A DNA stretch of 64,000 nt from an uncultured Planctomycetia bacterium (lineage in GTDB: Bacteria; Omnitrophota; Gorgyraeia; VGKH01; JBHPFN01), in the NCBI GenBank assembly GCA_964406665.1, contig CAYOSQ010000002.1:118219-182218 (forward strand), read 5' to 3'. This document shows, one piece after another, positions 593 through 38,421 of this stretch (the first letter of the stretch is position 1; the number at the start of each line of letters is the position of its first letter). Under the pieces are notes generated by a model. The model saw nothing but the letters and a program-made list of their open reading frames with translations. It made no database searches and was not told the DNA's origin. A program made the translations under genes and the position numbers.

Positions 593-1486
593 TTATACAG
601 CTTCTTCAGAGCCGTAAATGCATGCTCTATCTTTACCGAGGCACTTTGCTTGGTAAAGTGCTCTATCAGCTTTTTCAATAAGCTCCTCTTTAGATGCTGC
701 ATCTGAAGGAAACGAAGAAATTCCCACGCTTACTGTAATTGTAAGATTTTTTCGAACAAGATTTAGTATTCTTTTTGCTGCTGCAATAGCTCCCAGTTGA
801 GGTGTTTGTGGTAGAAGAACAGCAAACTCCTCGCCTCCATATCTAAACACCATATCTACAACTCTGATGGATTCCTTAAAGAAATGTCCTAATTTTCTAA
901 GCATTTCATCACCGGCCAGATGACCATGAGAATCGTTGAACTTTTTGAACCCATCGATATCCAGCATTAACAAAGAAAACTCTTGGGGATATCTCTTGGC
1001 TCGTTCAAGTTCTCTGGGGAGCATTTCATAAAAATATCTGTAGTTATAAACCCCAGTCAGACCATCTATAATAGAAAGTTCACGGTAGTATTCTTTTTTT
1101 CCAGCTTCTTCTAAAAGCCTCTGTCTTTCTGCTGTACGTGAAAGCACTATTCTTATGTCATCAGAATTAAATGGTTCTGTAATATAGTCGTATGCTCCTC
1201 TGCGAATTGCCTCAACTGCTGATTTATCATTTGAAGAATCTGTCGTAGCGATAACGCAGATATTTGGATTTTCTGCTTTCATTCTTTCAATCATGTCAAT
1301 GCTTTTTATGCTGGGAGACCTCAAGTCGATGATTACTATTTGGAATTTATTGTTTTTTGTAAGATTTAGCCCTTCGTCTCCCGAGAGTGCATGCCAAATG
1401 CTGAAAGTTTCTTTGCAAACGCTGGCGATAGCATCCTTAACTTCTTTTGTCTTATCAATTATTAAAATATTATTTTTAATATCCAT
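593..1486 (-). CDS. Response-regulator receiver (REC) + GGDEF diguanylate cyclase, PleD/WspR-like.
   Basis: The N-terminal REC domain shows ILIIDKTKEV...IVIIDLRSP. The C-terminal part shows DGLTGVYNYRYF...RYGGEEFAVLLP, a canonical GGEEF motif. Confidence 0.85.
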   Translation of the reverse strand: MDIKNNILIIDKTKEVKDAIASVCKETFSIWHALSGDEGLNLTKNNKFQIVIIDLRSPSIKSIDMIERMKAENPNICVIATTDSSNDKSAVEAIRRGAYDYITEPFNSDDIRIVLSRTAERQRLLEEAGKKEYYRELSIIDGLTGVYNYRYFYEMLPRELERAKRYPQEFSLLMLDIDGFKKFNDSHGHLAGDEMLRKLGHFFKESIRVVDMVFRYGGEEFAVLLPQTPQLGAIAAAKRILNLVRKNLTITVSVGISSFPSDAASKEELIEKADRALYQAKCLGKDRACIYGSEEAV

Positions 1487-3192
1487 TATTCTACAGATGT
1501 CACCCTTAAAACTTCTTCGAATGTTGTTAATCCTAGGCTGAATTTCTTGATGGCGTCATCCCATAAAGTCAACATACCGTTTTCTTTTACAGCGTAATTT
1601 CTTATTTTATCTTGAGAAGCACCTTTAACTATCATTTCTCTAATGCTGTCGTTAATCATCATAACTTCTAGAAGGCCCATCCTGCCTCTATATCCAGTAT
1701 TTCTACATGATTTACAACCTTTTCCTTTAAAGAATTTTGCATCTTTTCCAGGCTTAAATCCAATATCTTCAAGAGCGGATTCTGAAATCTTTATTGGTTC
1801 TTTGCATCTTTCGCAAATTTTCCTGCATAATCTTTGAGCGCAAGCCATAATTGCAGAAGATGAAACTAGAAAAGGTTCAACTCCCATATCAATTAAACGA
1901 GTAACCGCACCTGGTGCATCGTTTGTATGGAGTGTTGAAAAAACTAAAGTTCCCGTTAGGGCAGATTTAACCGCAATATCAGCTGTTTCAGAATCTCTAA
2001 TTTCACCGATCATTATCATATCAGGGTTTTGCCTGAGTAAAGATCTTAAGCCGCTGGCAAAGGTTAAGCCAATTTCTGGTTTAACATTAAGTTGGGTAAT
2101 GCCGTCAATTTGATATTCTACCGGATCCTCTACGGTAATTATATTTCTTTCAACCTGATTAAGCTGGTTAACTATAGAGTATAGTGTTGTAGACTTACCG
2201 CTTCCGGTAGGTCCAGTAACTAAAATTAAACCGAAGGGAGAAGCTATGGCTTTTTTAAATAGTGCAGTATTCTCAGGAAAAAAACCTAAACCGTCGAGGC
2301 CGATAGACAGATTCGCTCTATCGAGTAAGCGCAGTACAATCTTTTGTCCGTGAGTAATCGGTAAGATTGATACGCGAAAATCGATCTCTTTACCACCAAA
2401 CCTAATTTTGAATCTTCCGTCTTGAGGAAGTCGTAATTCTGTAATATCTAGATTTGTCATAATCTTTAATCGTGCGATAATAGCATTTTGATTCTTTTTA
2501 GGAAGCGACATTGCGTCGATAAGAACTCCGTCTATGCGATATCTTACTCTCAGATCTTTTTCTGTAGGCTCAACGTGGATATCTGATGCTCGCTGCTTCA
2601 TAGCTTCCCTGATAATTAAGTTTACCACCTGAATAATTGGCGCTTCTCCACTCTTCATGATAGTTGAGCTAATTTCTATTTGGTCAGCATCGTCATCAAG
2701 GGTTACCATGTTATCTCTGTCGCCAAGTTCTTTGATTACATCTGAAACAGAATCTTTTTCACTTCTATAGTATTTATTAATTGATTTGATTATGTCTTGT
2801 TCTGTGGACATTGCAATATCAATATCGTATCCAGTCAAATTTTTAATATCATCAAGCGCAAAAATATTTAAGGGATCTGCTGTGGCAAGTGTGATAGTTG
2901 AACCAATTTTGGAAATTGGAACAATGCGGTATTGACGGCAAATTCTCTCAGGGATAACTTTTATAACATCAGGGTCAATTCTGTATTTAGATAAATTTAT
3001 TGGTGGGATATTAAGTTCTTTTGCTAAAATGCCAATCAGTTCTTTTTCAGTAATCAGACCTTTTTCAACCAGAATTTTTTCAAGGCTGATTCCCTTTTGT
3101 TTTTGAGCCTTGATAGCTTTATCAAAATCTTCCTTTTTGATTTTTTTGTTTTCAACAATGATTTCTACTATTCTCTCTTTTAATGTTTTCAT
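1486..3192 (-). CDS. pilB: Type IV pilus/T2SS assembly ATPase, PilB/GspE family, paralog 1, with an N-terminal GspE_N/MshEN-like domain.
   Basis: Walker A GPTGSGKSTT is present, with Asp/His boxes and a tetracysteine CRKICERC...CKSCRNTGYRGR. Length is 568 aa with an N-terminal extension. Confidence 0.9.
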   Translation of the reverse strand: MKTLKERIVEIIVENKKIKKEDFDKAIKAQKQKGISLEKILVEKGLITEKELIGILAKELNIPPINLSKYRIDPDVIKVIPERICRQYRIVPISKIGSTITLATADPLNIFALDDIKNLTGYDIDIAMSTEQDIIKSINKYYRSEKDSVSDVIKELGDRDNMVTLDDDADQIEISSTIMKSGEAPIIQVVNLIIREAMKQRASDIHVEPTEKDLRVRYRIDGVLIDAMSLPKKNQNAIIARLKIMTNLDITELRLPQDGRFKIRFGGKEIDFRVSILPITHGQKIVLRLLDRANLSIGLDGLGFFPENTALFKKAIASPFGLILVTGPTGSGKSTTLYSIVNQLNQVERNIITVEDPVEYQIDGITQLNVKPEIGLTFASGLRSLLRQNPDMIMIGEIRDSETADIAVKSALTGTLVFSTLHTNDAPGAVTRLIDMGVEPFLVSSSAIMACAQRLCRKICERCKEPIKISESALEDIGFKPGKDAKFFKGKGCKSCRNTGYRGRMGLLEVMMINDSIREMIVKGASQDKIRNYAVKENGMLTLWDDAIKKFSLGLTTFEEVLRVTSVE

Positions 3193-3193
3193 T

Positions 3194-4927
3194 TTATTCT
3201 AACGGTTCATCAGGAGTAGTTACTTTTAGTACCTCCTCTAAAGACGTAAGGCCGGCTGCAACTTTTTTTATTCCATCTTCTCTTAAGGTAACCATTCCTT
3301 CTTTCCTACTTTGTTGTTTTAAAACATTATCAGCTGCTCTGGATAAAATTAATTCTCTAATTTTTGGAGAAAGAGGCATAATTTCGGAAATACAAACTCT
3401 TCCCTTGTAACCAGTTTGAAGACAAGTTTTACACCCTTTACCTTTATAGAATTCTATAGAACTTTCCGCATTAGTGGTAATCCCTAACCGCTTAGACATC
3501 TCTGGACTAATATTAAATGGTTCTTTACACTTCTCGCAAATTTTTCTAATGAGTCTTTGAGCTACGATAGCTATAACTGAAGAAGAAATTAAAAAAGGCT
3601 CAACTCCCATGTTCACCAATCTAATTATAGACCCGGGAGCAGTTGTTGTATGAAGAGTGCTTAGAACGAGATGTCCTGTTAAGGCAGATTTGATTGCTAT
3701 GTCAACAGTCTCAAAATCTCTAATTTCTCCGATCATTATAGTGTCAGGGTCTTGTCGCAATATGGATCGTAGGCTTGAAGCAAAGGTAAGCCCAATGTCT
3801 GGTTTAGCTGTTACTTGATTAATTCCTCGTAACTGATATTCCACAGGGTCTTCAACAGTAATTGCATTTTTCTCAGGAGAATCAATGTATTTAAGTATCG
3901 AATAAAGCGTGGTAGTTTTTCCAGAACCCGTAGGACCACAAACAAGTATCATACCATGTGGTTTTAAAGAACACTCTTTTAAAACTTCTAATGGTTTTCC
4001 TTCAAACCCTAGTTTATCAATATCTAAAATTGCATTAGCTTTATCTAAAATTCTAAGTGCAACTTTTTCTCCCCAGCCAGTAGGTAAAATAGAAACACGA
4101 AAATCCACTTGTCTATTTTCAATCATCGTCTTGAATCTTCCATCCTGAGGAAGACGGTGCTCCGCGATATCCAGAGAAGACATAACCTTAATACGTGAAA
4201 CAATTGACGGATGCAGCGTTTTCGGAGGAGAATCAAGAGCCCTTAAAGTACCATCAATTCTAAAACGGATCCTTAATTGCTTTTCCATAGGTTCAATTAA
4301 AATGTCGCTAGCCTTAGATTCAATCCCTTGCCTTAAGATTGCCTCAGTTAATTTAATTACAGGAGCTTCCTGTGTTAAGCGCGTTAGCTCATCTATAGAC
4401 ATAGACTCTTCATCAGCTCCTTTTATTAATTCTAGTTTCTCCAACTTGCTTTTTTCCATAGAATCCATTATTTCTTCTAGTACCTGGTGAGAGTCTTCTG
4501 AATAATAGTTTTCAATTGCTTCTAATATTTCTTTTGGACGAGCAACCACGGTATTTATTTCAAATCCAGTTAATGTTTTTGCATTGTCTATAGCAAAAAT
4601 ATTTAAAGGGTCACCAATAGCAAGGGTTAGAGAATTTCCAATTTTGGAGACAGGAATGATTTGGTGGAATATAGCAACATCTTTGGGAATAACTTTGATT
4701 ACTTCTGGAGGAATTTTGATGCGTGCAAGCTCTATATTGGGGAGCCCCAAGCTTTCGCTTAAAGCAATTGCAAGGTCGTTTTCATTAACAAGTTCTAGCT
4801 TAACTAGTATTTCGCTTAATCTCCCGCCTTTTTTCTTTTGTTCAGCTAAGGCTTTGTCTAGGTCTTCCTTTGTGATGAGCTTATTCTTTAATAAAAGCTC
4901 CATTAAGCGTTCTTTAAGCGAAATCAT
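3194..4927 (-). CDS. pilB: Type IV pilus/T2SS assembly ATPase, PilB/GspE family, paralog 2.
   Basis: Walker A GPTGSGKTTT and a tetracysteine CEKCKEP...CKTCLQTGYKGR are present. Length is 577 aa with a GspE_N-like N-terminus. Confidence 0.9.
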   Translation of the reverse strand: MISLKERLMELLLKNKLITKEDLDKALAEQKKKGGRLSEILVKLELVNENDLAIALSESLGLPNIELARIKIPPEVIKVIPKDVAIFHQIIPVSKIGNSLTLAIGDPLNIFAIDNAKTLTGFEINTVVARPKEILEAIENYYSEDSHQVLEEIMDSMEKSKLEKLELIKGADEESMSIDELTRLTQEAPVIKLTEAILRQGIESKASDILIEPMEKQLRIRFRIDGTLRALDSPPKTLHPSIVSRIKVMSSLDIAEHRLPQDGRFKTMIENRQVDFRVSILPTGWGEKVALRILDKANAILDIDKLGFEGKPLEVLKECSLKPHGMILVCGPTGSGKTTTLYSILKYIDSPEKNAITVEDPVEYQLRGINQVTAKPDIGLTFASSLRSILRQDPDTIMIGEIRDFETVDIAIKSALTGHLVLSTLHTTTAPGSIIRLVNMGVEPFLISSSVIAIVAQRLIRKICEKCKEPFNISPEMSKRLGITTNAESSIEFYKGKGCKTCLQTGYKGRVCISEIMPLSPKIRELILSRAADNVLKQQSRKEGMVTLREDGIKKVAAGLTSLEEVLKVTTPDEPLE

Positions 4928-5382
4928 TCTTTATTTCCTTCTCCATAATATTTATCTATTGAATGTTTAATGTCAGTAGATGTGCTTACAAAAGTTTGTA
5001 TTGTGCATTCAGTTATCATTTCCACATCCTCAATTGCATGTGTATTTAGAGGATTTGACATTGCTAGAGTTAAGCTTTTTCCAATTTTATCAACCGGGAT
5101 AAGGCAGTATTGCCTGCAGACATTTTCTGGAATAACAGAAATAACCTTGGGATCAATTTCGTAGCAAACAAGCGGTAGAAACGGAAAGCCATACTGATCA
5201 GTTAGGGCTTGAACAATATCTTCTTCTTTTGCATATTCAAGAGAAACCAACACCTCTCCAATTAAGCCACCCTTTTTCTTTTGAACTTCAAGAGCCTCAG
5301 AAAGCTGCTCTGGTGTTATAATACCGTTTTCTATAAGGAGTTGACCTAATTGTTTTTTTGTTAATCTATTAAGTTGAGTCAT
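4924..5382 (-). CDS. Standalone GspE_N/MshEN-type domain protein, a putative c-di-GMP receptor.
   Basis: The 152-aa protein carries two tandem 24-residue motifs, LGQLLIENGIITPEQLSEALEVQ and LIGEVLVSLEYAKEEDIVQALTDQ. These match the MshEN c-di-GMP-binding consensus RLGxxLxxxGxIxxxxLxxALxxQ. There is no ATPase domain. Its stop overlaps the pilB2 start by 4 nt. Confidence 0.65.
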   Translation of the reverse strand: MTQLNRLTKKQLGQLLIENGIITPEQLSEALEVQKKKGGLIGEVLVSLEYAKEEDIVQALTDQYGFPFLPLVCYEIDPKVISVIPENVCRQYCLIPVDKIGKSLTLAMSNPLNTHAIEDVEMITECTIQTFVSTSTDIKHSIDKYYGEGNKE

Positions 5383-5391
5383 AAAGTCACC

Positions 5392-6237
5392 TTATGACAA
5401 AATTTGGTTGCTTTCTTCCGGATTAGTTTCTGTTAAAATTCTTTGGGCCTTTTCAATCAATTCTTCTGAGGTCATACCATCAACTGGGTTTTCTGTGACA
5501 ACTCCTGTTATGGTAAGATTTAGAGTTTTTTCTGTTGAAGAAAAAATACTTTCAACTTTTTTTCTGATATCTTCAGCTAGTACAATAGCCTGTTTTTTGT
5601 TTCTTTCTGGAACCACTACGGCAAATTTTTCGTCAGAAAATCTTGCAACTTTATCTATTTCGCTGGTGCAATCTTTAATAATATTAGAGATAGTCTTCAA
5701 TGATTTTTCAGCAGAGCTAAAACCAGATGATGACACAATATTTTTGAAGCGGTCAACTTTTATCAACATGAAAGCGCATGGTCTTTGAAAGCTAATGGCT
5801 CTTTTTATCTCTTCTTCCAGCTTCTCTTTTAAAAAGGAGGGCTTGTATAGTCCCGTAAGGGAGTCCTCGACTTCTAAACTTTTAACCTTTTCTGATAAAG
5901 CACTTAAAGAATTGTTTAGGCTTCCGATTTCGTCGGACCCGCCGATAGTTTTTTTAGCACTTTCATAACCTGCGGCAATACCACGAGCAGATGAACTTAC
6001 ATTAATAATTGAATCAATGACTCCCTTTAGAATAAAGAAGCCCAGCAAGGCAAAAAAGAAAGCCAATGTTAACACAAGACCTAAGTTGTCAGCAATAAAT
6101 GATTTAGAAGCAGAATTGGGAAATATGTAGTTTAGAAGAAGTAAAATCGGAATTATGGTGGTAAGGCAAAAGGCTATTAAAATCTTAGATTTTAAACCAC
6201 TTGAGTTTATAGATATATTTTTTGAAAAACGACCCAT
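5392..6237 (-). CDS. Membrane protein (2 TM) with a degenerate GGDEF domain.
   Basis: N-terminal TM helices are followed by DSLTGLYKPSFL...RFSDEKFAVVVP. This has the GGDEF fold, but the GGEEF motif is replaced by SDEKF, so the protein is probably catalytically inactive. Confidence 0.6.
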   Translation of the reverse strand: MGRFSKNISINSSGLKSKILIAFCLTTIIPILLLLNYIFPNSASKSFIADNLGLVLTLAFFFALLGFFILKGVIDSIINVSSSARGIAAGYESAKKTIGGSDEIGSLNNSLSALSEKVKSLEVEDSLTGLYKPSFLKEKLEEEIKRAISFQRPCAFMLIKVDRFKNIVSSSGFSSAEKSLKTISNIIKDCTSEIDKVARFSDEKFAVVVPERNKKQAIVLAEDIRKKVESIFSSTEKTLNLTITGVVTENPVDGMTSEELIEKAQRILTETNPEESNQILS

Positions 6238-6377
6238 TTTTCGCCTCCCCGTTTATTCTAAGTTATTACTATACATAACATTTGCATTAATGTCAATGAA
6301 TTTTGAATGTTTATCAGCGGGATTTTTTGATTTTATTTATTTAATTGCAGATAGTTGTGGCTTTACTTGATGTAAAA

Positions 6378-7490
6378 TCAGAAGATTTTTCTTTTTTCGT
6401 TGATATTCAGAATGATGCCGATTAAAACTGCAAAAATAACCAATGTAGAGCCTCCATAGCTAATAAATGGAAGTGACAGGCCAACAACTGGACAAAGGCC
6501 TAAGGTCATAGATAGGTTAACCACTACCTGAAAGGCAAATAATCCAATAATGCCAACGATAAGGTATGTGGCAAACTTATCCCTGGTTTGAAAGGCAATC
6601 TTAAAGGCAGATAAAATCAAGATTAAATATAGAGAAACAAGAATTGATGCTCCCAAAAACCCCCACTCCTCACCAATTACAGAGAATACAAAATCTGTAT
6701 GGCGTTCTGGTAGAAAGTTTAGCTGATTCTGAGTTCCGGAAAGCCACCCTTTACCTAGAAGCCTTCCTGAGCCAATAGCGATCTTCGATTGGATCATTGT
6801 GTATCCAGCGCCCAAAGGATCAATGTTGGGATTCATAAAAACCAATAAGCGTTCTTTTTGATATCCTTTAAGAAAATGCCAAAGAACAGGAAAAGAAAGT
6901 AGACCTGTGGCAATCAAGCCAAATAAATATTTTGGTCTTGTTTCTGCGATAAGTAAAATTGATAAAAATATCGGAATTAGCGTTAAGGCGGTTCCTAAGT
7001 CTGGCTGCATAAAAATCAATCCCATAGGAATAAGAATGAGCGAAAAAGGAATTATTAATTCTCTAACCATCGACATGGAATTAGCTATAAATCCTGACTT
7101 AACGCTATAGGATCTCGTTTGACTGAAATATTTACTAAGAATAATGATTACGGAAAGCTTCATCAATTCCGAAGGCTGGAAGTTAAAAAAACCGAGTTCA
7201 AACCAACGTTGAGCACCTAAAATTTCTCGTCCGAAAATCAAAACTAATATAAGAAGAAAAGCGCTTATCCCGTAAAGATAATTAGCAAAGTCGTAAAAAC
7301 GTCTATAGTTAATCCTGCTTATTGCAATTATCACAAGAAAAGAAAATAATAATTTTACCAAATGTTTTATAAAGATATTTTTATAAAGAGGATTTGCTGC
7401 TTGATAAGTTGAGCTGTATACGGCAAGTAATCCAAATACCATTATTGCTGCTGTTAAATATAGAATTTTTAAACTACGCTTGCTATACAT
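6378..7490 (-). CDS. rodA: SEDS-family peptidoglycan polymerase RodA (FtsW/RodA/SpoVE).
   Basis: A 370-aa polytopic membrane protein sits directly downstream of PBP2 and mreBCD. Confidence 0.8.
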   Translation of the reverse strand: MYSKRSLKILYLTAAIMVFGLLAVYSSTYQAANPLYKNIFIKHLVKLLFSFLVIIAISRINYRRFYDFANYLYGISAFLLILVLIFGREILGAQRWFELGFFNFQPSELMKLSVIIILSKYFSQTRSYSVKSGFIANSMSMVRELIIPFSLILIPMGLIFMQPDLGTALTLIPIFLSILLIAETRPKYLFGLIATGLLSFPVLWHFLKGYQKERLLVFMNPNIDPLGAGYTMIQSKIAIGSGRLLGKGWLSGTQNQLNFLPERHTDFVFSVIGEEWGFLGASILVSLYLILILSAFKIAFQTRDKFATYLIVGIIGLFAFQVVVNLSMTLGLCPVVGLSLPFISYGGSTLVIFAVLIGIILNINEKRKIF

Positions 7491-7494
7491 TCTA

Positions 7495-9210
7495 TTAGTT
7501 TTTTAAATCCAACTTCTTTACTTCTTCTAAGATCTTCTTAGCTAAAACGCAGGCATTATAAGACGATCCGCCGTGTTCTAAGAATACACAAAAAGCTATT
7601 TCAGGCTTTTTTGTAGGGCCGTAACCTGCAAACCAAGAATGAGATTTTCCTCTGGAAGCTTGAGCCGTACCAGTTTTTCCCGCAACTGGAAATCCAGATA
7701 TATTAACAATATGTGCTGTTCCACTTGGATCTGAAACAACATTTCTTAAAGCGCTCCTGATGGTTTCTAAAGTTTCGTTTTTAACCGCAATCTTCTTTGC
7801 AGAGTCTTTTCTTACAACTTGAGCGCCATTAATTGAAAGCAGTAAAAATGGTTCAATTAGCCATCCGCCATTAGCGATTGCTGCCATAAGTCGTGCAGCT
7901 TGCAGAGGTGTAGCTAGAAATTCTCCCTGGCCAATGGAAAAATTAATCGTGTTGCCCTTATACCATCTTTCATTTTTGAAAAGTCTTTTTTTGATTTTGC
8001 TTGGAACGTTCCCCTTCTGTTCAAATGGTAAATCTATTCCTGTTAGCTTTCCAAAACCCCAATCAAGTGCATATTTTTCTATTAATTCAGGACCTAAAAT
8101 TAATCCCAGGTTATAAAAATATGTATTACAAGAATGCGTAATAGCATCCCTTAATTCCTGAATGCCGTGATTTCTTGAACATCGAAATGATGCATTTCCG
8201 ATTCTGAAATTACCATTACAAGTAAAGCTTGTATATGGACTAGTTTTATCTTCTTCTAGAGATGCAGTTGCGATAACGATTTTAAATATCGAACCCGGAG
8301 GATAAAGTCCGCTAATACAGCGATTAAGCATAGGACTTCTTTTATCTTTAAAAAGGTTCTTAATTCTATTTTCAGAATTTGCGGCAGTAAAAATATTAGG
8401 ATCGTAACTAGGAGAACTTACCATGGCTAAGATTTCTCCCGAATAGGGTTGTATAATGACAATTGCACCTTTCTTGTTACCTAATGTTTTGGCAGCGATT
8501 TTTTGAATTCTAAGATCGATGGTGATAGCAACATCCTTTCCTTTTTCAGGAGAGCGCATTGCTAAAACCTCTACTTGACGACCTCGGTTATCCGCCTTAA
8601 TTTGAGTTCCTCCGTCTTTTCCTTTTAAAAAACGATCAAAAAATTCTTCAACACCAGTATGTCCTACCAGATCCTTTACGCTATAGCCATATTCTTTTAA
8701 TTTTGATATTTTGGATTTGCTCACTAATCCAAGATATCCTAAGATATGAGAACAAATTTTACCGTGAAGATATGAACGTTCAGGAAAAGTTTCAATGATG
8801 ATTCCCGGTAAGGCTGTCTTTTTTTGTTCAATCATCATTGCTTGTTTTTTCGTAATGTTCTTTTTTATTAAGATCGGAGCAAAAGGGGCATAATAGTTTT
8901 TCTTAAAGTTTTTGTTAAGAGTTTCTTCTTCAACGTCAAGCAGCTTGCTTAAGATATTAAAAGTTGAATCTTTTTCCTTGAATTCTTGTGGAATTATAGC
9001 AATATTATAAGCCAGACGATTTTTTACAAGTATTTCACCATTTCGATCTGTAATAATTCCTCGCGGAGATTTTTGTTCGATTAGCCGGATATAGTTTTTT
9101 CTGCTTAGATTGTAGTAAGAGTTTCCTCTGACGACCTGCAATTTGATAAGACCAAAAAGAGGGAATAAAAATAAGCAAATTAGTATTAAAAGGAATACTT
9201 TGGAGCGCAT
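7495..9210 (-). CDS. mrdA: Penicillin-binding protein 2 (class B transpeptidase).
   Basis: It has an N-terminal anchor, a PBP dimerisation domain and a transpeptidase domain with the SxxK motif (GSIFK) and KTG (AGKTGTA). Confidence 0.85.
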   Translation of the reverse strand: MRSKVFLLILICLFLFPLFGLIKLQVVRGNSYYNLSRKNYIRLIEQKSPRGIITDRNGEILVKNRLAYNIAIIPQEFKEKDSTFNILSKLLDVEEETLNKNFKKNYYAPFAPILIKKNITKKQAMMIEQKKTALPGIIIETFPERSYLHGKICSHILGYLGLVSKSKISKLKEYGYSVKDLVGHTGVEEFFDRFLKGKDGGTQIKADNRGRQVEVLAMRSPEKGKDVAITIDLRIQKIAAKTLGNKKGAIVIIQPYSGEILAMVSSPSYDPNIFTAANSENRIKNLFKDKRSPMLNRCISGLYPPGSIFKIVIATASLEEDKTSPYTSFTCNGNFRIGNASFRCSRNHGIQELRDAITHSCNTYFYNLGLILGPELIEKYALDWGFGKLTGIDLPFEQKGNVPSKIKKRLFKNERWYKGNTINFSIGQGEFLATPLQAARLMAAIANGGWLIEPFLLLSINGAQVVRKDSAKKIAVKNETLETIRSALRNVVSDPSGTAHIVNISGFPVAGKTGTAQASRGKSHSWFAGYGPTKKPEIAFCVFLEHGGSSYNACVLAKKILEEVKKLDLKN

Positions 9211-9671
9211 TTTTTTATTAAATTGATTATTATGGGTGAGACTAGAGAAGTAAACAGGCTCTCGGCCGTTCCTTTTAGAAGTATCTGTGGCACAGCTTCC
9301 AATCTAGCAGAAAACAAAGAAAGCAAGCAAATGATTAGAATGTTCGCAAACGAAATGATAAATACAAATAACGCTTGTTCAAAAAATCTTTCCCTATAAA
9401 TAAAACTTTTTAATCTACGAGCAATATATCCGCAAATAGTAAAACTTATCAAATATGAACCAAAAGCACCAAAGCTAAAGATATCTTTTAAAAGCCCACT
9501 ACAAGAAGCAACTATCTTACCTTCTTTTTTGGAGAAATAAATATTTGCTACAATAGCAATTATCAAAAGAAAATCAGGCTTAACATGGAACAGCCTTAGA
9601 TTTTCAGGATAATTAATTGAAAACAATATTGCTGCAATTGATAAAATAGAAAAAACTACCGGTCTTTTCAT
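9186..9671 (-). CDS. mreD: Rod shape-determining protein MreD.
   Basis: A small 161-aa polytopic membrane protein sits between mreC and mrdA. Confidence 0.55.
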   Translation of the reverse strand: MKRPVVFSILSIAAILFSINYPENLRLFHVKPDFLLIIAIVANIYFSKKEGKIVASCSGLLKDIFSFGAFGSYLISFTICGYIARRLKSFIYRERFFEQALFVFIISFANILIICLLSLFSARLEAVPQILLKGTAESLFTSLVSPIIINLIKKCAPKYSF

Positions 9672-9679
9672 TTGAATAG

Positions 9680-10459: not shown

Positions 10460-10474
10460 ATGAATTCAGTAAAA

Positions 10475-31237: not shown

Positions 31238-31242
31238 TCTTT

Positions 31243-31995: not shown

Positions 31996-32120
31996 TCTCT
32001 CCTCCTTAAATTAAAATAATAAAGAAAAAATAAATCAAATTATTTTAACCACATATAAAAAAAGGATGATGATTTTTAAATTTAATCAGATTGAATTGTT
32101 TCTTTTTCATTACTATTTTT

Positions 32121-32560
32121 GTAGGGAGCAGGTTTTTTTTTCTCGCGATTGGCAGGTAAGCCGAGTTCTGTTGTTCGTCCGATTTTTGCGGACTAGATGA
32201 TCATTTATCTCGCCTCTGTGTTGCCACAGAGATCTTGCAGCCTACCCTCGCGACGATCTTTTAAAAAGATACGAGCGGGCCACTCTTCATCCAAAATGGA
32301 TTCATCGCGACTATTTAGCCTTGCTCAGCGCAGAGATTGCCTCGTTTCACTAACCTGATAACACAGGTTACTCGTCTCTGTGGCTCTACTTCTCATGAAG
32401 AGAAGCTACTTTAAAAAGTATATCCTACCCCAGAAAAGTTAACTGGGGCGTCCCGATTTTATCAGGATGCGCCGCCCTCTTGAGCCCGGACTTTCCTGCC
32501 CGACGCGTTGTCGGACTAATCATCTTTCCTGCCCGCGCAGAAAACATAACCTGCTCCTTT
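32121..32560 (-). ncRNA. rnpB: RNase P RNA (bacterial type).
   Basis: The reverse complement contains the universal P4 strands GGAAAGUCCGGGCUC and ACAGAACUCGGCUUA, with a P3-like hairpin GUCCGACAACGCGUCGGGC. Long-range pairing between 5' GGAGCAGGUU and 3' AACCUGCUCC forms P1. Local GC is much higher than the flanks. The ends are approximate. Confidence 0.85.
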
Positions 32561-32949
32561 ACAGCCTGCGTTGCTAAAAAATCAGCGTTTTGATTCTTTT
32601 CTCTGACAATATGAGTTATTTCAAAATGCTTAAAACCAGTAATCGCATGTGTAGCTATTTCAAAAAGGAATTTTATATTTGGATTTTTGACCTTGTATTC
32701 TTTATTTATTTGCTTAGCTAAAAGCTGACTGTCTGTTTTCACGGAAACATGCTTAGCTTTAAGAATGAGCGCGGCTTGTAAAGAAAATATTAAGGCAACA
32801 TATTCAGCAACATTATTTGTCGTATATCCGATATATCTGCCAAATTCTTTGACAACTTTATTATTTTTTAAAATAACAACGCCAACCCCAGCTAGGCCTG
32901 GATTTCCCTTTGAGGCACCATCAATAAAAATTTCAAATTTTTCTTTCAC
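32425..32949 (-). CDS. rnhA: RNase H (type 1, RNase HI-like).
   Basis: IFIDGASKGNPGLAGVGVVI...NNVAEYVALI...KTDSQLL; the RNase H fold ends near residue ~133. The last ~40 codons of the ORF run into the 5' part of rnpB. Confidence 0.7.
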   Translation of the reverse strand: MKEKFEIFIDGASKGNPGLAGVGVVILKNNKVVKEFGRYIGYTTNNVAEYVALIFSLQAALILKAKHVSVKTDSQLLAKQINKEYKVKNPNIKFLFEIATHAITGFKHFEITHIVREKNQNADFLATQAVKEQVMFSARAGKMISPTTRRAGKSGLKRAAHPDKIGTPQLTFLG

Positions 32950-33671
32950 TGTTCATCCTCTATAAATAAAATCCTGGCACAAGCTTCGCAAACTACTATG
33001 CGATCTTTCATTTTAATTTCATTAACAATCTGTGGTGTTACGGTTAAGTGACAACCCATGCAAGCAAAATCTTTAACAGGGCTTAACGCATGTCCATCTC
33101 GACTAATCAATATTTTCTCATACTGAGAAAGAATGGTTCTTTCAATATCGGGTAGAATTTGAGACCTTTGAGCTTCAAATTTTTTTAGAGCTTCTCCTAT
33201 TTCTTTTATTCTGTCGTCAACTTCTTTCTTTTGTGAATTAAAAACCTGCTCTTCCTCATTAAGCCTTGTCTGCTCCGTAGTTATTTTATCACCAAGAGAG
33301 TCCACTTGGTCAAAATTATTTAGAATCTCTTCTTCAAGCACAGACTTATCAGCTTTTGCAGAATCAATCTCTGAGAGCATGGCTGAATATTCTTTATTAG
33401 TTTTTAGTGCAGATAATTGATTATTTAACTTGGCTATTCCTTCTTCTTTTGACAAAAGCTGATTTTCTTTATCTTTTCTGTTTACTAAAAGCTGTTTTTT
33501 CTGTTCTTCGAGTTCTTTCAAATGAGCTTTTTTTGCTTCAAATTGTTCTTTTAATTCAGCAATTTTAGCGGGTTTTTCTTCTTTTTCTTGATTCAAGGAA
33601 TAAATCTGAGAATCGATTTCTTGTAAATCTATTAGTTTTTCTATTTGTTCCTTGAAATTTATACTATTCAC
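32946..33671 (-). CDS. Zinc-ribbon coiled-coil protein (COG1579-like, C4 zinc ribbon).
   Basis: A long coiled coil is followed by CMGCHLTVTPQ...VCEACARIL. The ATG at 33725 in the ORF track lies inside tRNA-Val. The likely real start is the GTG at 33671, which is preceded by AGGAAA. Confidence 0.6.
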   Translation of the reverse strand: MNSINFKEQIEKLIDLQEIDSQIYSLNQEKEEKPAKIAELKEQFEAKKAHLKELEEQKKQLLVNRKDKENQLLSKEEGIAKLNNQLSALKTNKEYSAMLSEIDSAKADKSVLEEEILNNFDQVDSLGDKITTEQTRLNEEEQVFNSQKKEVDDRIKEIGEALKKFEAQRSQILPDIERTILSQYEKILISRDGHALSPVKDFACMGCHLTVTPQIVNEIKMKDRIVVCEACARILFIEDEQ

Positions 33672-33691
33672 AAATTTCCTTTTTTTCAATA

Positions 33692-33765
33692 TGGGCGATA
33701 CAGGATTTGAACCTGTGACCTCCACAATGTGAGTGTGGCGCTCTAACCAACTGAGCTAACCGCCC
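33692..33765 (-). tRNA. tRNA-Val (anticodon CAC).
   Basis: I folded the cloverleaf by hand. The acceptor pairs GGGCGGU/AUCGCCC, the anticodon stem CCACA/UGUGG, and the anticodon loop is CUCACAU. The T-loop is GGUUCAAAUCC. The 3' CCA is not encoded. Confidence 0.9.
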
Positions 33766-33781
33766 TCCTAATAGTATTCTC

Positions 33782-33855
33782 TGGGCCCAAGAGGACTCGA
33801 ACCTCTGACCAGCTGATTATGAGTCAGCTGCTCTAACCGACTGAGCTATGGGCCC
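33782..33855 (-). tRNA. tRNA with anticodon CAU. It is an elongator tRNA-Met or a tRNA-Ile2 (lysidine).
   Basis: Acceptor GGGCCCA/UGGGCCC (G1-C72, so not an initiator). The anticodon loop is CUCAUAA and the T-loop is GGUUCGAGUCC. C4-G69 and C5-G68, together with the anticodon stem GCUGA, resemble tRNA-Ile2. Confidence 0.85.
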
Positions 33856-33972
33856 TGATTATCTTAAACTGAAAAATTATTATACTTGCTTTCTGAGCCT
33901 ATGTAAAGTTTTTTATTACAATAATTTAAATAAACTTTAAGTGTAGTTTTTTGGGGAGATTTAAAGAAATTG

Positions 33973-34560
33973 TTATCTGGCAGAAACTCCGGGCAAACGT
34001 ACCGAAGTAGATATTTCAATTCGTGGATTTTCGATTGATTCTGGTTGCGAAAAATCATCCAAAGCAGCTATGGAAAAATTAATAAAGGGAGACGACGAGT
34101 CTCCAGTATCGTCAAAATTTACAGAAATGATATTGTTCGCAATAATATCATAGTTTAAGCCAGAATCATGGGAAACTCGAAACTGTCCGTTTCCAGCATT
34201 GTAATCGTAAAGTATGCTATAGGTATCAGCTGCATCAACTTTTCCATCATAGGGAAAACTATCTGGTCTAATTTGAACACCTTCACCACCTGCAACTATC
34301 ATAACCCCACGCATAGATCCGTCTCCGGGATCAAGCGCACCATAGCCAATAGCCTTGACTAAATCAGAAACAACACTTTCTGTTGCCAAGCCAACTTCAT
34401 TGGCTATTTGAGATTGTTTGCTGGCATTATGAAGCATTCGCCTGGCAACGATATCAACGCTTGTAGCAGCTCCGATTGCAAGCGCAATTAGACCAGCCGC
34501 AATTATAAGCTCTGTTAATGTAATACCTTTTTTATTAGAGAAGTGTTTAATTTGGCTCAT
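33973..34560 (-). CDS. Type IV pilin-like protein (minor pilin/pseudopilin) with a prepilin N-terminal cleavage/methylation motif.
   Basis: N-terminus KKGITLTELIIAAGLIALAIG, which is a class III signal with Ile in place of Phe. Confidence 0.6.
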   Translation of the reverse strand: MSQIKHFSNKKGITLTELIIAAGLIALAIGAATSVDIVARRMLHNASKQSQIANEVGLATESVVSDLVKAIGYGALDPGDGSMRGVMIVAGGEGVQIRPDSFPYDGKVDAADTYSILYDYNAGNGQFRVSHDSGLNYDIIANNIISVNFDDTGDSSSPFINFSIAALDDFSQPESIENPRIEISTSVRLPGVSAR

Positions 34561-34996
34561 CCCAGGAAATAATTATTTCAACTTTACGCATCGGCTCGCC
34601 AGCAAAAGGCTCGGTAACTTCATATATCACAGATAAGTTTTCAACATTAGTTTTAAGCGGGTGATCTGCCGGAACAGAACCAGCAATTTCTGTTGGAACG
34701 CCCAGCGGCCATAATGGATTTGCTGCATTCTCCCAGAGCTCTGCTCCAACGCCTCTGTTAAAATTTTCTAGAAAATCAGTTGCTAAAGTTGCAGCTTGAA
34801 GTCTACGTTGTGACCGGCTGATAAATTTATTTGCTGCAACAAAAGCACCAATAATTCCTGCTGTAACAGTTGCCAGAAGAATCATTGAGATTAGTATTTC
34901 AATTAGAGTAAACCCTGCCAAACGGTTGTTTTTCGCTAACCGCAAAGCAGGGTTTAATATTTTTTTTCTTAAATCTTTGCTTTTCAAATTACGCAA
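34547..34996 (-). CDS. Type IV pilin/pseudopilin.
   Basis: AGFTLIEILISMILLATVTAGIIG follows an unusually long basic leader of ~28 aa. Confidence 0.65.
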   Translation of the reverse strand: MRNLKSKDLRKKILNPALRLAKNNRLAGFTLIEILISMILLATVTAGIIGAFVAANKFISRSQRRLQAATLATDFLENFNRGVGAELWENAANPLWPLGVPTEIAGSVPADHPLKTNVENLSVIYEVTEPFAGEPMRKVEIIISWDEPN

Positions 34997-34999
34997 TGA

Positions 35000-35386
35000 T
35001 TAAAAAGCGTTTAGAAATGTTCCAGTACCAGAAAGAGATCCGTCTCCACACATTATAACAGTTCCTCCTGCTGCTTCTGTCCAAGTAGCAGTAAGAGTAA
35101 AGTCAGCACTAGCGCATGCTCCAGGTACGACAATTCCATAAGTGAACGCGGCTCCGCCAGCGATATCAGGATCTTCTATATCCAAATCACCTTTATTAGC
35201 AGTATAGGAATTGTTTACGGCAAAATAGCGGAATTCAGCACTTCTTAAAGCTCCAAGGTTTAAAACAGCTTCTGAAGCTGTTGCCTTTCTGGTTGTGTCA
35301 ATAAACCTAGGTAGTGCCATGCTGGCTAAGATACCAATAATAATTACAACTATAATCAACTCTAACAACGTAAAACCTTTTTTCAT
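35000..35386 (-). CDS. pilA: Type IV major pilin candidate (PilA/GspG-like).
   Basis: MKKGFTLLELIIVVIIIGILA prepilin signal on a 128-aa protein with a C-terminal Cys pair (GACASADF...IMCGDG). Confidence 0.8.
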   Translation of the reverse strand: MKKGFTLLELIIVVIIIGILASMALPRFIDTTRKATASEAVLNLGALRSAEFRYFAVNNSYTANKGDLDIEDPDIAGGAAFTYGIVVPGACASADFTLTATWTEAAGGTVIMCGDGSLSGTGTFLNAF

Positions 35387-35472
35387 CTTTCCTCCTTTTA
35401 AGTTTTTTATATATTAAAAAATATAATTATTGTCCTATTGTTTTGTTTAGCTACCACCTCCTTTTGTTTGCC

Positions 35473-36705
35473 CTATCCTCCAAAACCACGCATTGTTGCC
35501 ATGTTAATTATCGGCAAAAACATGGAAATTACAATAACACCAACAAGCAGTCCCATAATTACCAAAGCAATTGGTTCAAATAAAGTTGTCAGACGTTCAG
35601 TGAAAGTATCAACGTATTCTTCGTAAAACTGAGCGATTCTTTTAAGCATGTTGCCTAAATCGCCAGTTTCTTCTCCGATCATGATCATCTGCACAACCAT
35701 TGGTGGAAAGAATCCACTTTTAATCATAGGGTCTACAACAAGTTTCCCCTCACGAACATTATTTTTAATATCCTCAACAACTTTTCCCATGATGCCTTCA
35801 CCCATCATTCTCTGTGTTATTTCTAATGTGTAAAGTATGGGAACTCCACTTTCTATTAAAATAGACATTTGTGAAGTAAACCGTTCAATCATTGCAACTT
35901 TAAAAAAGTTTCCAAAGAGCGGAATTTTAAAAGTAATAGCTTCTATAGTTCTTCTGCCGATTGCTGTCTTGGCATATCTTTGAACAGCATAGATTATAGC
36001 ACAAAAACCTAAAATCAATAACAAAAATTTATTTCTTACAAATTCGAAAAATCCCAAGACTCCCAATGTTAAAGCAGGCAATTGCATGTTTAGCGATTCA
36101 AATATTTTATCGAACGTCGGGATAATCTTATAAGCAAAAAAGGCAACTGCGCCACAACAGAGAACAACAAGTATTACTGGGTAGAACATAGCGGATACAA
36201 CCTTGCCTTGAAAAGCAGCTTTTTTTTCAAGATATACTGCCATTCTATTTAAAACCTGAGGAAGGGTTCCCGAGGCTTCGCCGACTTCACTTAAACTAAC
36301 CCAAAATTGATCAAAAACTTTGGGATATTTTGCTAAGCCACTACTTAACGAAAGACCTCTTTCTAAATCCTTTTTTAGGCTCACCAAAGTTTCCTGCAGC
36401 TTTTTACTTTCCACCTGAAGACTTATTATGTCAATACTTCTTAATAAGGTGACTCCCGCATCAAGCATAGTAGCAAGCTGTCGAGCAAAAGTTACTAAAT
36501 CTCGAAGATTAAGGTTGCCACGTTTAGCTTTTTTTCCAATGACCGTTGTTTGTTTTTTTGGTTCCTTTGCTTCTGGCTCGATTCTGATAACAAAATAACC
36601 TTTTGATTGCAGAGATTGAGCTAGTGCTTCTTTAGTTTTAGCTTCTTCAGAAGCAGTTATTCTTTTACCTGTGTTATCTGTTATCGTGTATGAAAATCTT
36701 GGCAT
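35473..36705 (-). CDS. pilC: Type IV pilus platform protein PilC (GspF family).
   Basis: Two T2SSF repeats and 3 TM segments in a 410-aa protein. Confidence 0.9.
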   Translation of the reverse strand: MPRFSYTITDNTGKRITASEEAKTKEALAQSLQSKGYFVIRIEPEAKEPKKQTTVIGKKAKRGNLNLRDLVTFARQLATMLDAGVTLLRSIDIISLQVESKKLQETLVSLKKDLERGLSLSSGLAKYPKVFDQFWVSLSEVGEASGTLPQVLNRMAVYLEKKAAFQGKVVSAMFYPVILVVLCCGAVAFFAYKIIPTFDKIFESLNMQLPALTLGVLGFFEFVRNKFLLLILGFCAIIYAVQRYAKTAIGRRTIEAITFKIPLFGNFFKVAMIERFTSQMSILIESGVPILYTLEITQRMMGEGIMGKVVEDIKNNVREGKLVVDPMIKSGFFPPMVVQMIMIGEETGDLGNMLKRIAQFYEEYVDTFTERLTTLFEPIALVIMGLLVGVIVISMFLPIINMATMRGFGG

Positions 36706-36708
36706 TTT

Positions 36709-38421
36709 TTAAACCTCTCCGTATGTTACGCTTAAAACTTCTTCTAAGCTAGTAATTCCTGCCTCTACTTTTTTTATACCATTGTCAAAAAGAGACATCA
36801 TACCGGCTTTTCTTGCCTCAGCCTTAACTGTTTGATAATCTACTTTCTTTCGAATGAGACTCTTGATGGAATCAGTAACCGCCATAACTTCACCTAGTAA
36901 AACTCTACCCTTGTAACCAATCTGATTGCATTCCTCACAACCCTTGGCGCGATAAATCGGTCCCTGAGCATTAATTTTGATATCGCCTAAATCATCAGGC
37001 TTTGGTTCGTAGGCCTCTTTACATTTTGGACACAATCTTCTAGCAAGTCGCTGTGCAACAATACACAATAGAGAAGGCATTAAAAGATATGGCTCAACCC
37101 CGATATCTAATAGTCTTGTTACAGCAGATGGTGCATCGTTAGTATGCAAGGTGCTCAATACCATGTGTCCGGTTAAAGATGCTCTAACGCATATTTGAGC
37201 GGTTTCTAAATCTCTGATTTCGCCTACCATTATTACATCAGGATCTTGGCGCAAAAATGAACGCAATGCTGAAGCAAAAGTTAAGCCAATTTCTGGCCGA
37301 ATTTGTACCTGATTTATATCTTCGAGACGATATTCAACTGGATCTTCGATGGTGATTATATTCATTTTGGGATTAACAACTTCATTTAATCCAGCATAAA
37401 GAGTTGTTGTTTTTCCGCTTCCGGTTTGTCCAGTTAAAAGAACAAGGCCGCACATAGAATGAATTGATCTTCTAAAAACCTCAAGCTGCTTTGGTTCAAA
37501 TCCAAGAACAGATAAATCTAAAGGAGCATTCCCTTTATCTAGAATTCTTATTACAACTTTTTCTCCATATATTGTGGGAATACAAGAAACTCTTAAATCA
37601 ACAACGCGATCTTCCAGCTTTACAATAAAAGCTCCATCTTGAGGTAATCTTTTTTCTGCGATATCAAGCTTTGTTAAAATCTTTATTCTTGAGACCAAAG
37701 GCAAGTGCAAATGTTTTGCCGGAGGAGGTATTTCATAAAGAATACCATCAATCCTATATCTAAGGTTGATTTTTTCTTTAAAAGGTTCTATGTGGATATC
37801 AGAGGCTCTTTCATCAATTGCTTGTCTTATTATCAAATCAACCAATTTAACAACCGGAGCTTCTTCTGCTCTGGCAATTAATTTATCAAGGCTCAACTCT
37901 TCGTGTTCAAAAACCCTGTCTTCGATTGAGGTTTCTACCCCATATGACTCCTTGACTGCTTCTCCAAGCATATTTGTTTTAGAATAAAAATCTTCAATCG
38001 CTTTTAGAATATCGGTTCTGGGTGCAACAACGAGGTTAATTTCGCAGCCAGTAAGCTTTTTTAAATTATCAATAAGAATTACATTTAGTGGATCAAAGAT
38101 AGCGCAGGTTAAAGAATTCAAATTTCTTGATAAAGGTAAAACAAGATTTTTTTGAGCAAAATCTTTTGTTATCAATTGATCCAGTTCTTGATCTTGAGAC
38201 GGAGTTAGCAAACCAGAACTTTTTGAAGCATAGGGAATCGAAAGCTGTTTTCCTAGAGCAGCTACCATGTCTTCTTCTTTTATTATACCGAGTCTAATTA
38301 GCACTTCTCCGATACGTCCACCTTCTTGCTTTTGGGCAGACATAGCTTTTTCCAGCTGCTCTGAAGAAATGAGATTTTGCTTAATTAATATTTCGCCAAG
38401 TCTTAAATGTGTTTTTGTCAT
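36709..38421 (-). CDS. pilB: Type IV pilus assembly ATPase PilB, paralog 3, with a canonical MshEN c-di-GMP-binding N-domain.
   Basis: Walker A LTGQTGSGKTTT, a tetracysteine CPKCKEA...CEECNQIGYKGR, and N-terminal motifs RLGEILIKQNLISSEQLEKAMSAQ and RIGEVLIRLGIIKEEDMVAALGKQ. Confidence 0.9.
   Translation of the reverse strand: MTKTHLRLGEILIKQNLISSEQLEKAMSAQKQEGGRIGEVLIRLGIIKEEDMVAALGKQLSIPYASKSSGLLTPSQDQELDQLITKDFAQKNLVLPLSRNLNSLTCAIFDPLNVILIDNLKKLTGCEINLVVAPRTDILKAIEDFYSKTNMLGEAVKESYGVETSIEDRVFEHEELSLDKLIARAEEAPVVKLVDLIIRQAIDERASDIHIEPFKEKINLRYRIDGILYEIPPPAKHLHLPLVSRIKILTKLDIAEKRLPQDGAFIVKLEDRVVDLRVSCIPTIYGEKVVIRILDKGNAPLDLSVLGFEPKQLEVFRRSIHSMCGLVLLTGQTGSGKTTTLYAGLNEVVNPKMNIITIEDPVEYRLEDINQVQIRPEIGLTFASALRSFLRQDPDVIMVGEIRDLETAQICVRASLTGHMVLSTLHTNDAPSAVTRLLDIGVEPYLLMPSLLCIVAQRLARRLCPKCKEAYEPKPDDLGDIKINAQGPIYRAKGCEECNQIGYKGRVLLGEVMAVTDSIKSLIRKKVDYQTVKAEARKAGMMSLFDNGIKKVEAGITSLEEVLSVTYGEV

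Follow-up and report, generated by a model that had tools for sequence, protein, structure and literature searches.

Two pilus-like gene sets, three PilB/GspE-type ATPases and putative stand-alone c-di-GMP receptors in a Candidatus Omnitrophota-like genome fragment

The stretch of DNA analysed here, referred to below as the window, covers 64 kb of contig CAYOSQ010000002.1, has a GC content of 35% and is Candidatus Omnitrophota-like. It encodes, on its minus strand, three full-length ATPases of the PilB/GspE type, which are considered here together with the machines that they would power and the proteins through which cyclic di-GMP (c-di-GMP) may act on them. PilB1 (1486-3192, 568 aa) and PilB2 (3194-4927, 577 aa) form a tandem pair, PilB2 being the upstream and PilB1 the downstream member, and PilB3 (36709-38421, 570 aa) is the assembly ATPase of a separate pil operon. 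PilB3 displays a canonical c-di-GMP signature in its N-terminal MshEN domain, the motifs of PilB1 and PilB2 are degenerate, and a stand-alone MshEN protein with conserved motifs is encoded directly upstream of PilB2. Related loci were collected by scanning one genome per GTDB species, which yielded 80 loci (cited below by their L numbers); the nearest of them, at 50-58% identity, come from metagenome-assembled genomes (MAGs) of Omnitrophota, including Ca. Gygaella obscura.

Each of the three ATPases matches the Pfam families T2SSE (E 1e-132 to 1e-137) and MshEN. An earlier note on this DNA had described three full-length proteins of this type that retain the Walker A site and a tetracysteine Zn motif, and this description is borne out, coordinates included. 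In all of them a Walker A, an Asp box, an atypical Walker B with its GE and the CxxC...CxxC tetracysteine motif can be recognised. The exceptions in the T2SSE core are TGT instead of TGH in the His box and an RQNPD motif in PilB1, and the Walker A of PilB3 (37393-37416, residues 331-338), which reads GQTGSGKT and not the near-universal GPTGSGK[ST]; this Pro-to-Gln change is found in 2 of 120 PilB3-type relatives. The closest relatives of known structure are the PilB proteins of Geobacter and Myxococcus, and the tandem proteins outscore the operon-embedded PilB3 against solved PilB structures (584 and 573 bits for PilB1 and PilB2; 514 bits for PilB3, against Geobacter PilB). Pairwise identity amounts to 49% for PilB1/PilB2, 49% for PilB2/PilB3 and 42% for PilB1/PilB3.

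The best NCBIfam model for all three is the PilB equivalog TIGR02538 (645.3, 659.1 and 614.5 bits for PilB1, PilB2 and PilB3), with scores below the equivalog cutoff of 675.65 bits; the GspE model TIGR02533 gives 587-607 bits, below its own cutoff of 630. An assignment to PilB or GspE by hidden Markov model (HMM) score was therefore given up, as the two sets of scores are close and both under their cutoffs, and as the deep nodes of a neighbour-joining (NJ) tree have less than 10% support. Because neither HMM scores nor the tree split PilB from GspE, the label 'pilus-like' used below rests on gene context. An identity as TfpB was also rejected, the NF053534 scores (452.6, 461.0 and 465.9 bits) lying under the equivalog cutoff of 850.

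None of the three is PilT-like, as the earlier note had held. PilT and PilU proteins are about 340-400 aa long and lack both the N-terminal (N1) domain and the tetracysteine Zn motif, whereas the three ATPases are 568-577 aa long and carry MshEN domains. Their scores against the PilT model TIGR01420 are 168-193 bits for a cutoff of 319, and their cores are 29-33% identical to PilT versus 46-54% to PilB/GspE. The phylogeny for which the earlier note had called, an NJ tree with bootstrap values, computed from the ATPase cores of 115 sequences that include annotated GspE, PilT and R64 PilQ references from plasmid records, places no paralog with PilT: a PilT clade of 14 members splits from every full-length protein with 100% bootstrap. 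PilT identity was thus rejected on model scores and tree placement. Searches of the 64-kb window by tblastn with all three proteins found no other T2SSE-family ATPase, hence no PilT, one short ORF (open reading frame) aside.

In the same tree, PilB1-type and PilB2-type proteins form separate clades (61% and 77% bootstrap) and their duplication is therefore old. The PilB1-type proteins share specific changes, with TGH of the His box becoming TGQ or TGT and RQDPD becoming RQ(S/N)PD in a 15-sequence consensus and also in L090. These changes are seen in L001-L018, L067 and L090 and are kept in organisms ranging from 35% to 62% GC. The altered His corresponds to H413 of Geobacter metallireducens PilB, which packs against T411 at an inter-chain interface, and the gamma-phosphate ligand His (H420 in that protein) is retained in PilB1-type proteins (PMC5424180).

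PilB2 and PilB1 lie near the left end of the window, in a gene cluster (machine B) that starts at 6237 and runs off that end. An exact-sequence match of PilB1 led to four metagenomic contigs, deposited at JGI and ENA, which reach left past the window start, the source contig being L081. On the source contig, the rod-shape genes MreBCD-PBP2-RodA are followed by genes for a membrane GGDEF protein, a solo MshEN protein, PilB2, PilB1, a response-regulator-GGDEF protein and a 1415-aa GGDEF-AAA_16-HEAT protein, and then by genes for a second solo MshEN (155 aa, motifs LLG…G…Q / VLG…G…Q), a PilC-type T2SSF protein, a prepilin-like protein (159 aa), a PilN-like protein (216 aa), PilO, a PilP-like protein and a secretin. 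As this set has its own PilC, pilin, PilO and secretin, PilB2 and PilB1 belong to a second complete pilus-like machine. The rod-shape operon itself occupies 6378-11548, immediately upstream of the machine-B cluster; PBP2 and RodA, the two rod-shape genes looked for in other loci, also precede it at a distance of about 1.8-2 kb in L004, L005, L006, L012 and L067.

The other machine, machine A, extends from 33973 to 43093 and is an ordinary type IVa pilus (T4aP) set. It comprises a PilX-like gene, a PilM-PilN fusion (40914-42422, minus strand like the whole set; Pfam PilM_2 and PilN), PilO (40364-40912; PilO/T2SSM_b), a 153-aa gene without Pfam match in the position of PilP (39924-40385), the PilQ secretin (38425-39927; Secretin, Secretin_N and STN), PilB3, the platform protein PilC (35473-36705; T2SSF, E 2e-56) and three pilin or minor-pilin genes (33973-35386; 128, 149 and 195 aa, all with N_methyl). 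PilB3 thus sits between secretin and PilC within a pil operon, as the earlier note had reported. That note had left two explanations for the paralogs, namely that they power different filaments or that they have sub-functionalised. The first is right for PilB3 versus PilB1 and PilB2, and the second is plausible for PilB1 versus PilB2, which are separate ancient orthologous groups with motif changes peculiar to the PilB1 type.

The published MshEN motif, RLGxx(L/V/I)(L/V/I)xxG(L/V/I)(L/V/I)xxxxLxxxLxxQ, occurs twice with a 5-residue spacer, and the backbone amides of the RLG glycines of MshE (G11 and G40, position 3 of each 24-residue motif) hydrogen-bond the guanine; binding of c-di-GMP is abrogated by the G11I substitution, and XpsE, which does not bind it, has the changes G11V, R38G, G40L and Q61V (PMC5013675). 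In PilF, the domain GSPII-A has one degenerate motif and is a non-binder, whereas GSPII-B, with K/L where position 1 would be R, binds with 6 nM affinity; very high affinity has been proposed to be predicted by a hydrophobic residue at this position (PMC11731258). The motif region of PilB3 (residues 7-59, 38245-38403) reads RLGEILIKQNLISSEQLEKAMSAQ-KQEGG-RIGEVLIRLGIIKEEDMVAALGKQ. Its only deviation is an Asn where motif I should have its turn Gly (KQNLI). The earlier note quoted the two motifs exactly, and motif II is perfect, but motif I fails even the relaxed published pattern at position 10 and is thus not near-perfect, as that note had it. The corresponding region of PilB2 (residues 7-59, 4751-4909) holds RLMELLLKNKLITKEDLDKALAEQ as motif I and RLSEILVKLELVNENDLAIALSES as motif II (RLM…AEQ / RLS…SES), and that of PilB1 (residues 7-59, 3016-3174) holds RIVEIIVENKKIKKEDFDKAIKAQ and SLEKILVEKGLITEKELIGILAKE (RIV…KAQ / SLE…AKE).

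The change that discriminates between the paralogs is the loss of the RLG glycine (G11/G40), replaced in motifs I and II by V and E in PilB1 and by M and S in PilB2. The marker put forward earlier, Asn or Lys in place of the conserved Gly, concerns the turn Gly (G18 of Vibrio cholerae MshE), which is also Asn in motif I of PilB3, and it does not set the paralogs apart. The terminal Gln is indeed lost from motif II of PilB1 and PilB2 (E and S, respectively) but kept in motif I (…KAQ, …AEQ). At position 1, for which the extended consensus allows R/K/L, motifs I and II have R and R in PilB3 and in PilB2, and R and S in PilB1.

The claim that only PilB3 keeps the c-di-GMP signature holds at the level of families. 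Among the PilB3-type relatives (120 clusters, 65-84% identity), both RLG glycines are present in 120/120 and the two Gln in 119/120 and 120/120. By contrast, among the PilB2-type relatives (118 clusters, 60-80% identity), the equivalents of G11 (T/Q/K/I…), G40 (S/K) and Q61 (G/S/E) are found in 0/118 each, and those of R9, L10, L25, L29 and Q32 are conserved. The degenerate motifs of PilB2 are, from these alignments, a family property and not noise; in the PilB1-type sequences, taken from 15 loci, the degeneracy is more variable. By the criteria of the literature, c-di-GMP binding is therefore predicted for PilB3, which keeps the RLG glycines and the Gln of motif II, and not for PilB1 and PilB2, which have lost them.

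The MshEN fold seems to be kept nevertheless. The AlphaFold2 (AF2) model of the PilB2 N-domain (pLDDT 86) has a TM score of 0.79-0.85 to 5HTL, which is also its top Foldseek match (E 2e-10); the fold of PilB1 and PilB3 was assessed from Pfam and NF053729 matches, PilB3 scoring 66.7 bits with the latter. Structure models were tried as a test of binding, but the solo protein and the PilB2 N-domain came out with one and the same fold, and hence no discrimination was obtained. The predicted alpha1 is longer in the PilB2 N-domain (residues 4-14) than in the solo protein (12-18), which may be taken as a hint at most.

The solo protein (4924-5382, minus strand, 152 aa; Pfam MshEN 1e-17) consists of an MshEN domain alone, with an NF053729 score (65.5 bits) as high as that of PilB3. 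Its motif region (residues 11-63, 5194-5352) reads QLGQLLIENGIITPEQLSEALEVQ-KKKGG-LIGEVLVSLEYAKEEDIVQALTDQ and keeps both RLG glycines and both Gln, with Q at position 1 of motif I and L at that of motif II. In 120 relatives, all of about 150 aa and from Omnitrophota wherever named, both Gly are present in 120/120, the Gln in 116/120 and 120/120 and the motif-II Leu in 120/120, with little or no variation at any of the six hydrophobic triad positions. The AF2 model (pLDDT 86) displays the full two-subdomain fold, with MshEN_N as a four-helix bundle and MshEN_C of alpha/beta type, and its top Foldseek match is the crystal structure of MshEN with c-di-GMP (5HTL, E 4e-11). Stand-alone MshEN proteins are not novel by themselves: when 1.8 billion cluster representatives were searched with a profile, 32,121 clusters matched, and 49 of the top 150 representative matches are no longer than 200 aa, others among these 150 showing two to seven repeats or a fusion to ATPases. 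The gene is closely tied to its neighbours, as its stop overlaps the start of PilB2 (ATGA), a single nucleotide separates PilB2 from PilB1 and the stop of PilB1 overlaps the start of the response-regulator-GGDEF gene; solo MshEN and PilB2, and likewise PilB2 and PilB1, are translationally coupled.

Three GGDEF genes surround this module. Upstream, the membrane GGDEF protein (5392-6237, minus strand, 281 aa; Pfam GGDEF 2.5e-26) has a degenerate SDEKF active site and no RxxD I-site; an ortholog is found upstream of the solo gene in most related loci. Downstream, the response-regulator-GGDEF protein (593-1486, minus strand, 297 aa; Pfam Response_reg and GGDEF) carries GGEEF and an RxxD I-site. 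Its receiver has the phospho-acceptor Asp (IVIIDL), ITEPF in place of KPF and one residue of the N-terminal acidic pair, and may, judging from these residues, be atypical or a pseudo-receiver. The third protein, of which the window start leaves the first 191 codons (1-574, minus strand), has an AGDEF and an RxxD; over its full 1415 aa (12619-16866 on L081), an N-terminal GGDEF domain is followed by an AAA_16/STAND-like NTPase and C-terminal HEAT repeats. Its gene, located between PilB1/response-regulator-GGDEF and the second solo gene, is also present in Ca. Gygaella (L004, L067). The earlier note rightly saw the loss of the c-di-GMP signature in PilB1 and PilB2, but left out the solo protein and the GGDEF genes; with these, the picture shifts from a c-di-GMP input that was lost to one that has probably moved to separate proteins.

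The order solo MshEN, PilB2-type, PilB1-type and PilC is conserved in at least 13 loci (L001, L004-L008, L011-L014, L018, L031 and L067), usually preceded by a membrane GGDEF gene and often by RodA/PBP2. Among ATPases with an alignable N-terminus, all 24 of those encoded behind a solo gene (12 loci) lack at least one RLG Gly (21 of them both), versus 19 of 60 elsewhere. Furthermore, a natural fusion exists: P0373 (765 aa) joins a solo-like MshEN, 41% identical to that of the window, through a Gly/Lys/Asn-rich linker to an ATPase of the PilB2 type that shares 49.5% identity with PilB2 and has the degenerate signature of that type, RVI… / SLL…SQG. It lies on a 62% GC contig and is followed by a PilB1-type gene (RQSPD, TGQLVLSTLHT) and PilC. 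P0373 thus provides evidence of the Rosetta-stone kind for a joint action of solo protein and PilB2. In L010 (192-2624), a 371-aa ORF with two MshEN domains, one solo-like and one PilB-N-like, precedes a 427-aa ATPase core devoid of N1 domain; this split could be a real alternative architecture or a MAG frameshift. Verrucomicrobiota loci L009 and L016 were rejected as outgroup modules, their upstream ORF having only TPR and an MshEN_C-like piece.

The statement that no retraction ATPase is encoded stands for the window, but beyond it a PilT-clade gene lies inside the same cluster as PilB1 and PilB2 orthologues in L006 (4293-5798), L007 (3787-4875) and L014 (4253-5326), as placed by the tree. 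A PilT-sized ORF outside the tree set occupies the same position in L011 (3913-5046), and in all four loci the PilT-like gene lies between the membrane GGDEF gene and the solo gene. In the window, the membrane GGDEF gene directly abuts the solo gene, with no gene between them. L028 has a PilT-clade gene (3604-4797) between two full-length PilB genes, one of which keeps the canonical motif; this locus has no match to solo MshEN or membrane GGDEF.

The simplest account of gene content, synteny, motifs and fusion, to which we give moderate credence, is one of two machines in which c-di-GMP sensing for the dual-motor machine B is done in trans. PilB3, as the single motor of machine A and with a site that looks intact, would probably be switched on directly by c-di-GMP, as are V. 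cholerae MshE and Myxococcus xanthus PilB. Machine B would be driven by two full-length ATPases, the conserved and translationally coupled pair PilB2-PilB1, whose N-domains, having kept the MshEN fold and lost the backbone-donor glycines and the motif-II Gln, would not bind c-di-GMP. The response-regulator protein with its GGEEF and the 1415-aa AGDEF-STAND-HEAT protein are the putative operon cyclases that would make c-di-GMP. The stand-alone MshEN proteins, in which Gly and Gln are conserved and position 1 is hydrophobic, may bind it; once loaded, they might act on the N-domains of PilB2 and PilB1, or on the platform, to license assembly. PilB1 and PilB2 would be sub-functionalised partners, as a heteromer or as two sequential motors, and not an extension/retraction pair.

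Several observations weigh against this account. All its functional statements come from sequence, those on ligand binding from the motifs. PilB1 and PilB2 pass the domain cutoff of the NF053729 c-di-GMP_motif model (40.3 and 54.3 for a cutoff of 38) and keep the Leu triads, R9 and Q32, so that residual or altered binding is possible. Position 1 of motif I of the solo protein (Q; Q/H in relatives) falls outside both the relaxed [RKPN] and the extended R/K/L sets, and its motif II lacks the turn Gly. The AF2 models of the solo protein and of the PilB2 N-domain have similar TM scores to the binder 5HTL and to the non-binders XpsE (2D28) and Xanthomonas citri PilB-N. The association between solo genes and RLG loss (Fisher p 1.5e-9) comes from phylogenetically clustered cases, essentially one clade, and the solo::PilB2 fusion is a single sequence on one contig. 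With the low support of the deep nodes of the NJ tree, PilB1 and PilB2 may or may not stem from a lineage-specific duplication. Finally, with one pilin-like gene in view, machine B may be a secretion-type rather than a pilus-type device.

A bolder version is possible but doubtful. It treats the solo-MshEN/PilB2/PilB1 operon as a module with a split receptor and a dual motor, widespread in Omnitrophota and in at least one 62% GC lineage, in which the PilB2-type N-domain has a new conserved site and the motor is heteromeric or works by hand-over. The strictly conserved PilB2-type signature, RL[T/Q/K]…Q / [R/K/S]LS…[G/S], would then have evolved rather than decayed, and might serve as a docking site for the solo MshEN once this has taken up c-di-GMP, or else as the site for another ligand. 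The His-box change of the PilB1-type proteins would retune the inter-subunit coupling of the PilB2/PilB1 motor.

An unlikely alternative sees in the solo MshENs c-di-GMP-independent adaptors or inhibitors, for example N1-domain decoys for a docking site on PilM or PilC, the GGDEF proteins signalling elsewhere. The lack of Arg, Lys or Leu at motif-I position 1 of the solo protein is consistent with such a role, as are the contacts that the MshEN_C/ND1 subdomain makes with GspL/PilM-type partners in solved complexes (2BH1 and 4PHT matches); Acinetobacter baylyi, moreover, has a dedicated motor inhibitor alongside two extension motors (PMC11656802). However, the (near-)invariant Gly, Gln and triad hydrophobics of the 120 solo relatives are hard to explain without ligand binding, and the solo genes lie among three GGDEF genes, the second following that of the 1415-aa GGDEF protein.

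It is still less probable that one tandem member, most likely PilB1, took over retraction and that machine B uses a PilB-type extension/retraction pair without PilT. The absence of PilT from the window and the clade-specific changes of PilB1, at the first His-box residue (H413 of G. metallireducens PilB; PMC5424180) and from RQDPD to RQ(S/N)PD, fit such a role, and the Tad ATPase CpaF offers a precedent for a bifunctional or unconventional motor. However, L006, L007 and L014 carry a genuine PilT-clade gene besides their PilB1- and PilB2-type genes, to which the PilT-sized ORF of L011 and the PilT-clade gene of L028 can be added, although the latter locus has no solo gene. Furthermore, two features typical of assembly ATPases, the N1 domain and the tetracysteine motif, are present in PilB1, which groups with PilB/GspE, apart from PilT, with 100% bootstrap.

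Least probable of all is that the degeneracy of PilB1 and PilB2 falls within tolerated MshEN variation, with all three ATPases binding c-di-GMP and the solo proteins being extra receptors for unrelated targets: despite the NF053729 scores above cutoff, the residues (R9, L10, L25, L29 and Q32 equivalents) conserved in 118 PilB2-type proteins, the intact fold of the PilB2 N-domain model and a published consensus that has already been widened once (PMC11731258), G11I alone abrogates binding by MshE and XpsE, with the same class of changes, is a non-binder (PMC5013675), PilF GSPII-A does not bind with just one degenerate motif (PMC11731258), and in 118/118 PilB2-type proteins Gly is absent at both sites in favour of the side chains T/Q/K/I and S/K.

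The favoured account, two machines with sensing in trans for machine B, can be set beside several known systems. PilB3 has the architecture MshEN_N, MshEN_C, N2D and CTD, with the Zn motif, of V. cholerae MshE, M. xanthus PilB and Clostridium perfringens PilB2. It resembles the MshE-type ATPases in its two 24-residue motifs, their 5-residue spacer, both RLG glycines and both Gln, but differs from them by the Asn at the motif-I turn Gly and by the GQTGSGKT Walker A; PilB1 and PilB2, although of the same architecture, lack the glycines and the motif-II Gln. In the PilB-PilZ-FimX systems of Xanthomonas and Pseudomonas, a PilB whose ND0 domain lacks the motif receives the c-di-GMP signal in trans via docking proteins (PMC8389850), and the PilB2 N-domain model has a TM score of about 0.74 to the structure of the X. 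citri PilB N-domain. Unlike in these systems, no PilZ or FimX (EAL) partner was seen here, there are two motors instead of one, and the candidate trans-receptor is an MshEN domain, hence paralogous to the very domain from which the site was lost.

Thermus thermophilus PilF, with its three tandem GSPII/MshEN domains, combines binding and non-binding copies on one motor, the high-affinity copy having a hydrophobic residue or Lys at position 1 (PMC11731258). P0373 is similarly built, with a binder-like copy, then a degenerate copy, then the ATPase; unlike in PilF, the binder-like copy of the family described here is usually a separate product of 150 aa, and this family is one of Omnitrophota, not Deinococcus-Thermus. 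A. baylyi likewise uses two full-length assembly-type ATPases, PilB and TfpB, in one machine (PMC11656802), but the genes described here are neighbours with translational coupling, each belongs to a conserved clade of its own and neither encodes TfpB. In none of these three systems (PilB-PilZ-FimX, PilF and PilB/TfpB) does an MshEN paralogue acting in trans occur together with a pair of coupled motors. No passage among those returned by literature searches dealt with tandem PilB genes or solo MshEN in Omnitrophota, and the main genomics paper on this phylum notes the presence of T4aP, a search of its text for the term 'c-di-GMP' giving no match (PMC10066038).

The rest of the window provides a few side observations. 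All its credible genes are on the minus strand, the few plus-strand ORFs of at least 120 aa being nested within minus-strand genes, and this co-orientation is complete across 64 kb. A search with Rfam at the gathering threshold found no c-di-GMP riboswitch in the window; the matches were RNase P RNA and two tRNAs. The RNase P RNA (32145-32535, minus strand; 137 bits) overlaps the last ~110 nt of an RNase H-like ORF (32425-32949, minus strand) of 174 residues, in which the RNase H domain extends to about residue 130. The C-terminal tail of this ORF is probably a read-through into the RNase P RNA gene, or else a genuine overlap. The two tRNA genes lie at 33692-33855 (minus strand). As the downstream one overlaps the GTG-start N-terminus of a zinc-ribbon/CT398-like coiled-coil ORF (32946-33725, minus strand), the true start of this ORF probably lies further in.

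For annotation, a Pfam or NCBIfam match to 'MshEN' or 'c-di-GMP_motif' should not be equated with c-di-GMP binding unless both RLG glycines have been checked. If sensing in trans is true, a paralogous MshEN would provide a third route from c-di-GMP to PilB, beside in-cis MshEN and PilZ-FimX, and the module would bear on why a single assembly ATPase is not enough for some bacteria (PMC11656802). The Omnitrophota are described as uncultured, mostly ultra-small and thought to be attached to or to prey on other cells, type IV pili being among their most conserved 'symbiosis' genes (PMC10066038). For these bacteria, the locus would offer a testable wiring diagram for how they decide to deploy an attachment or secretion device.

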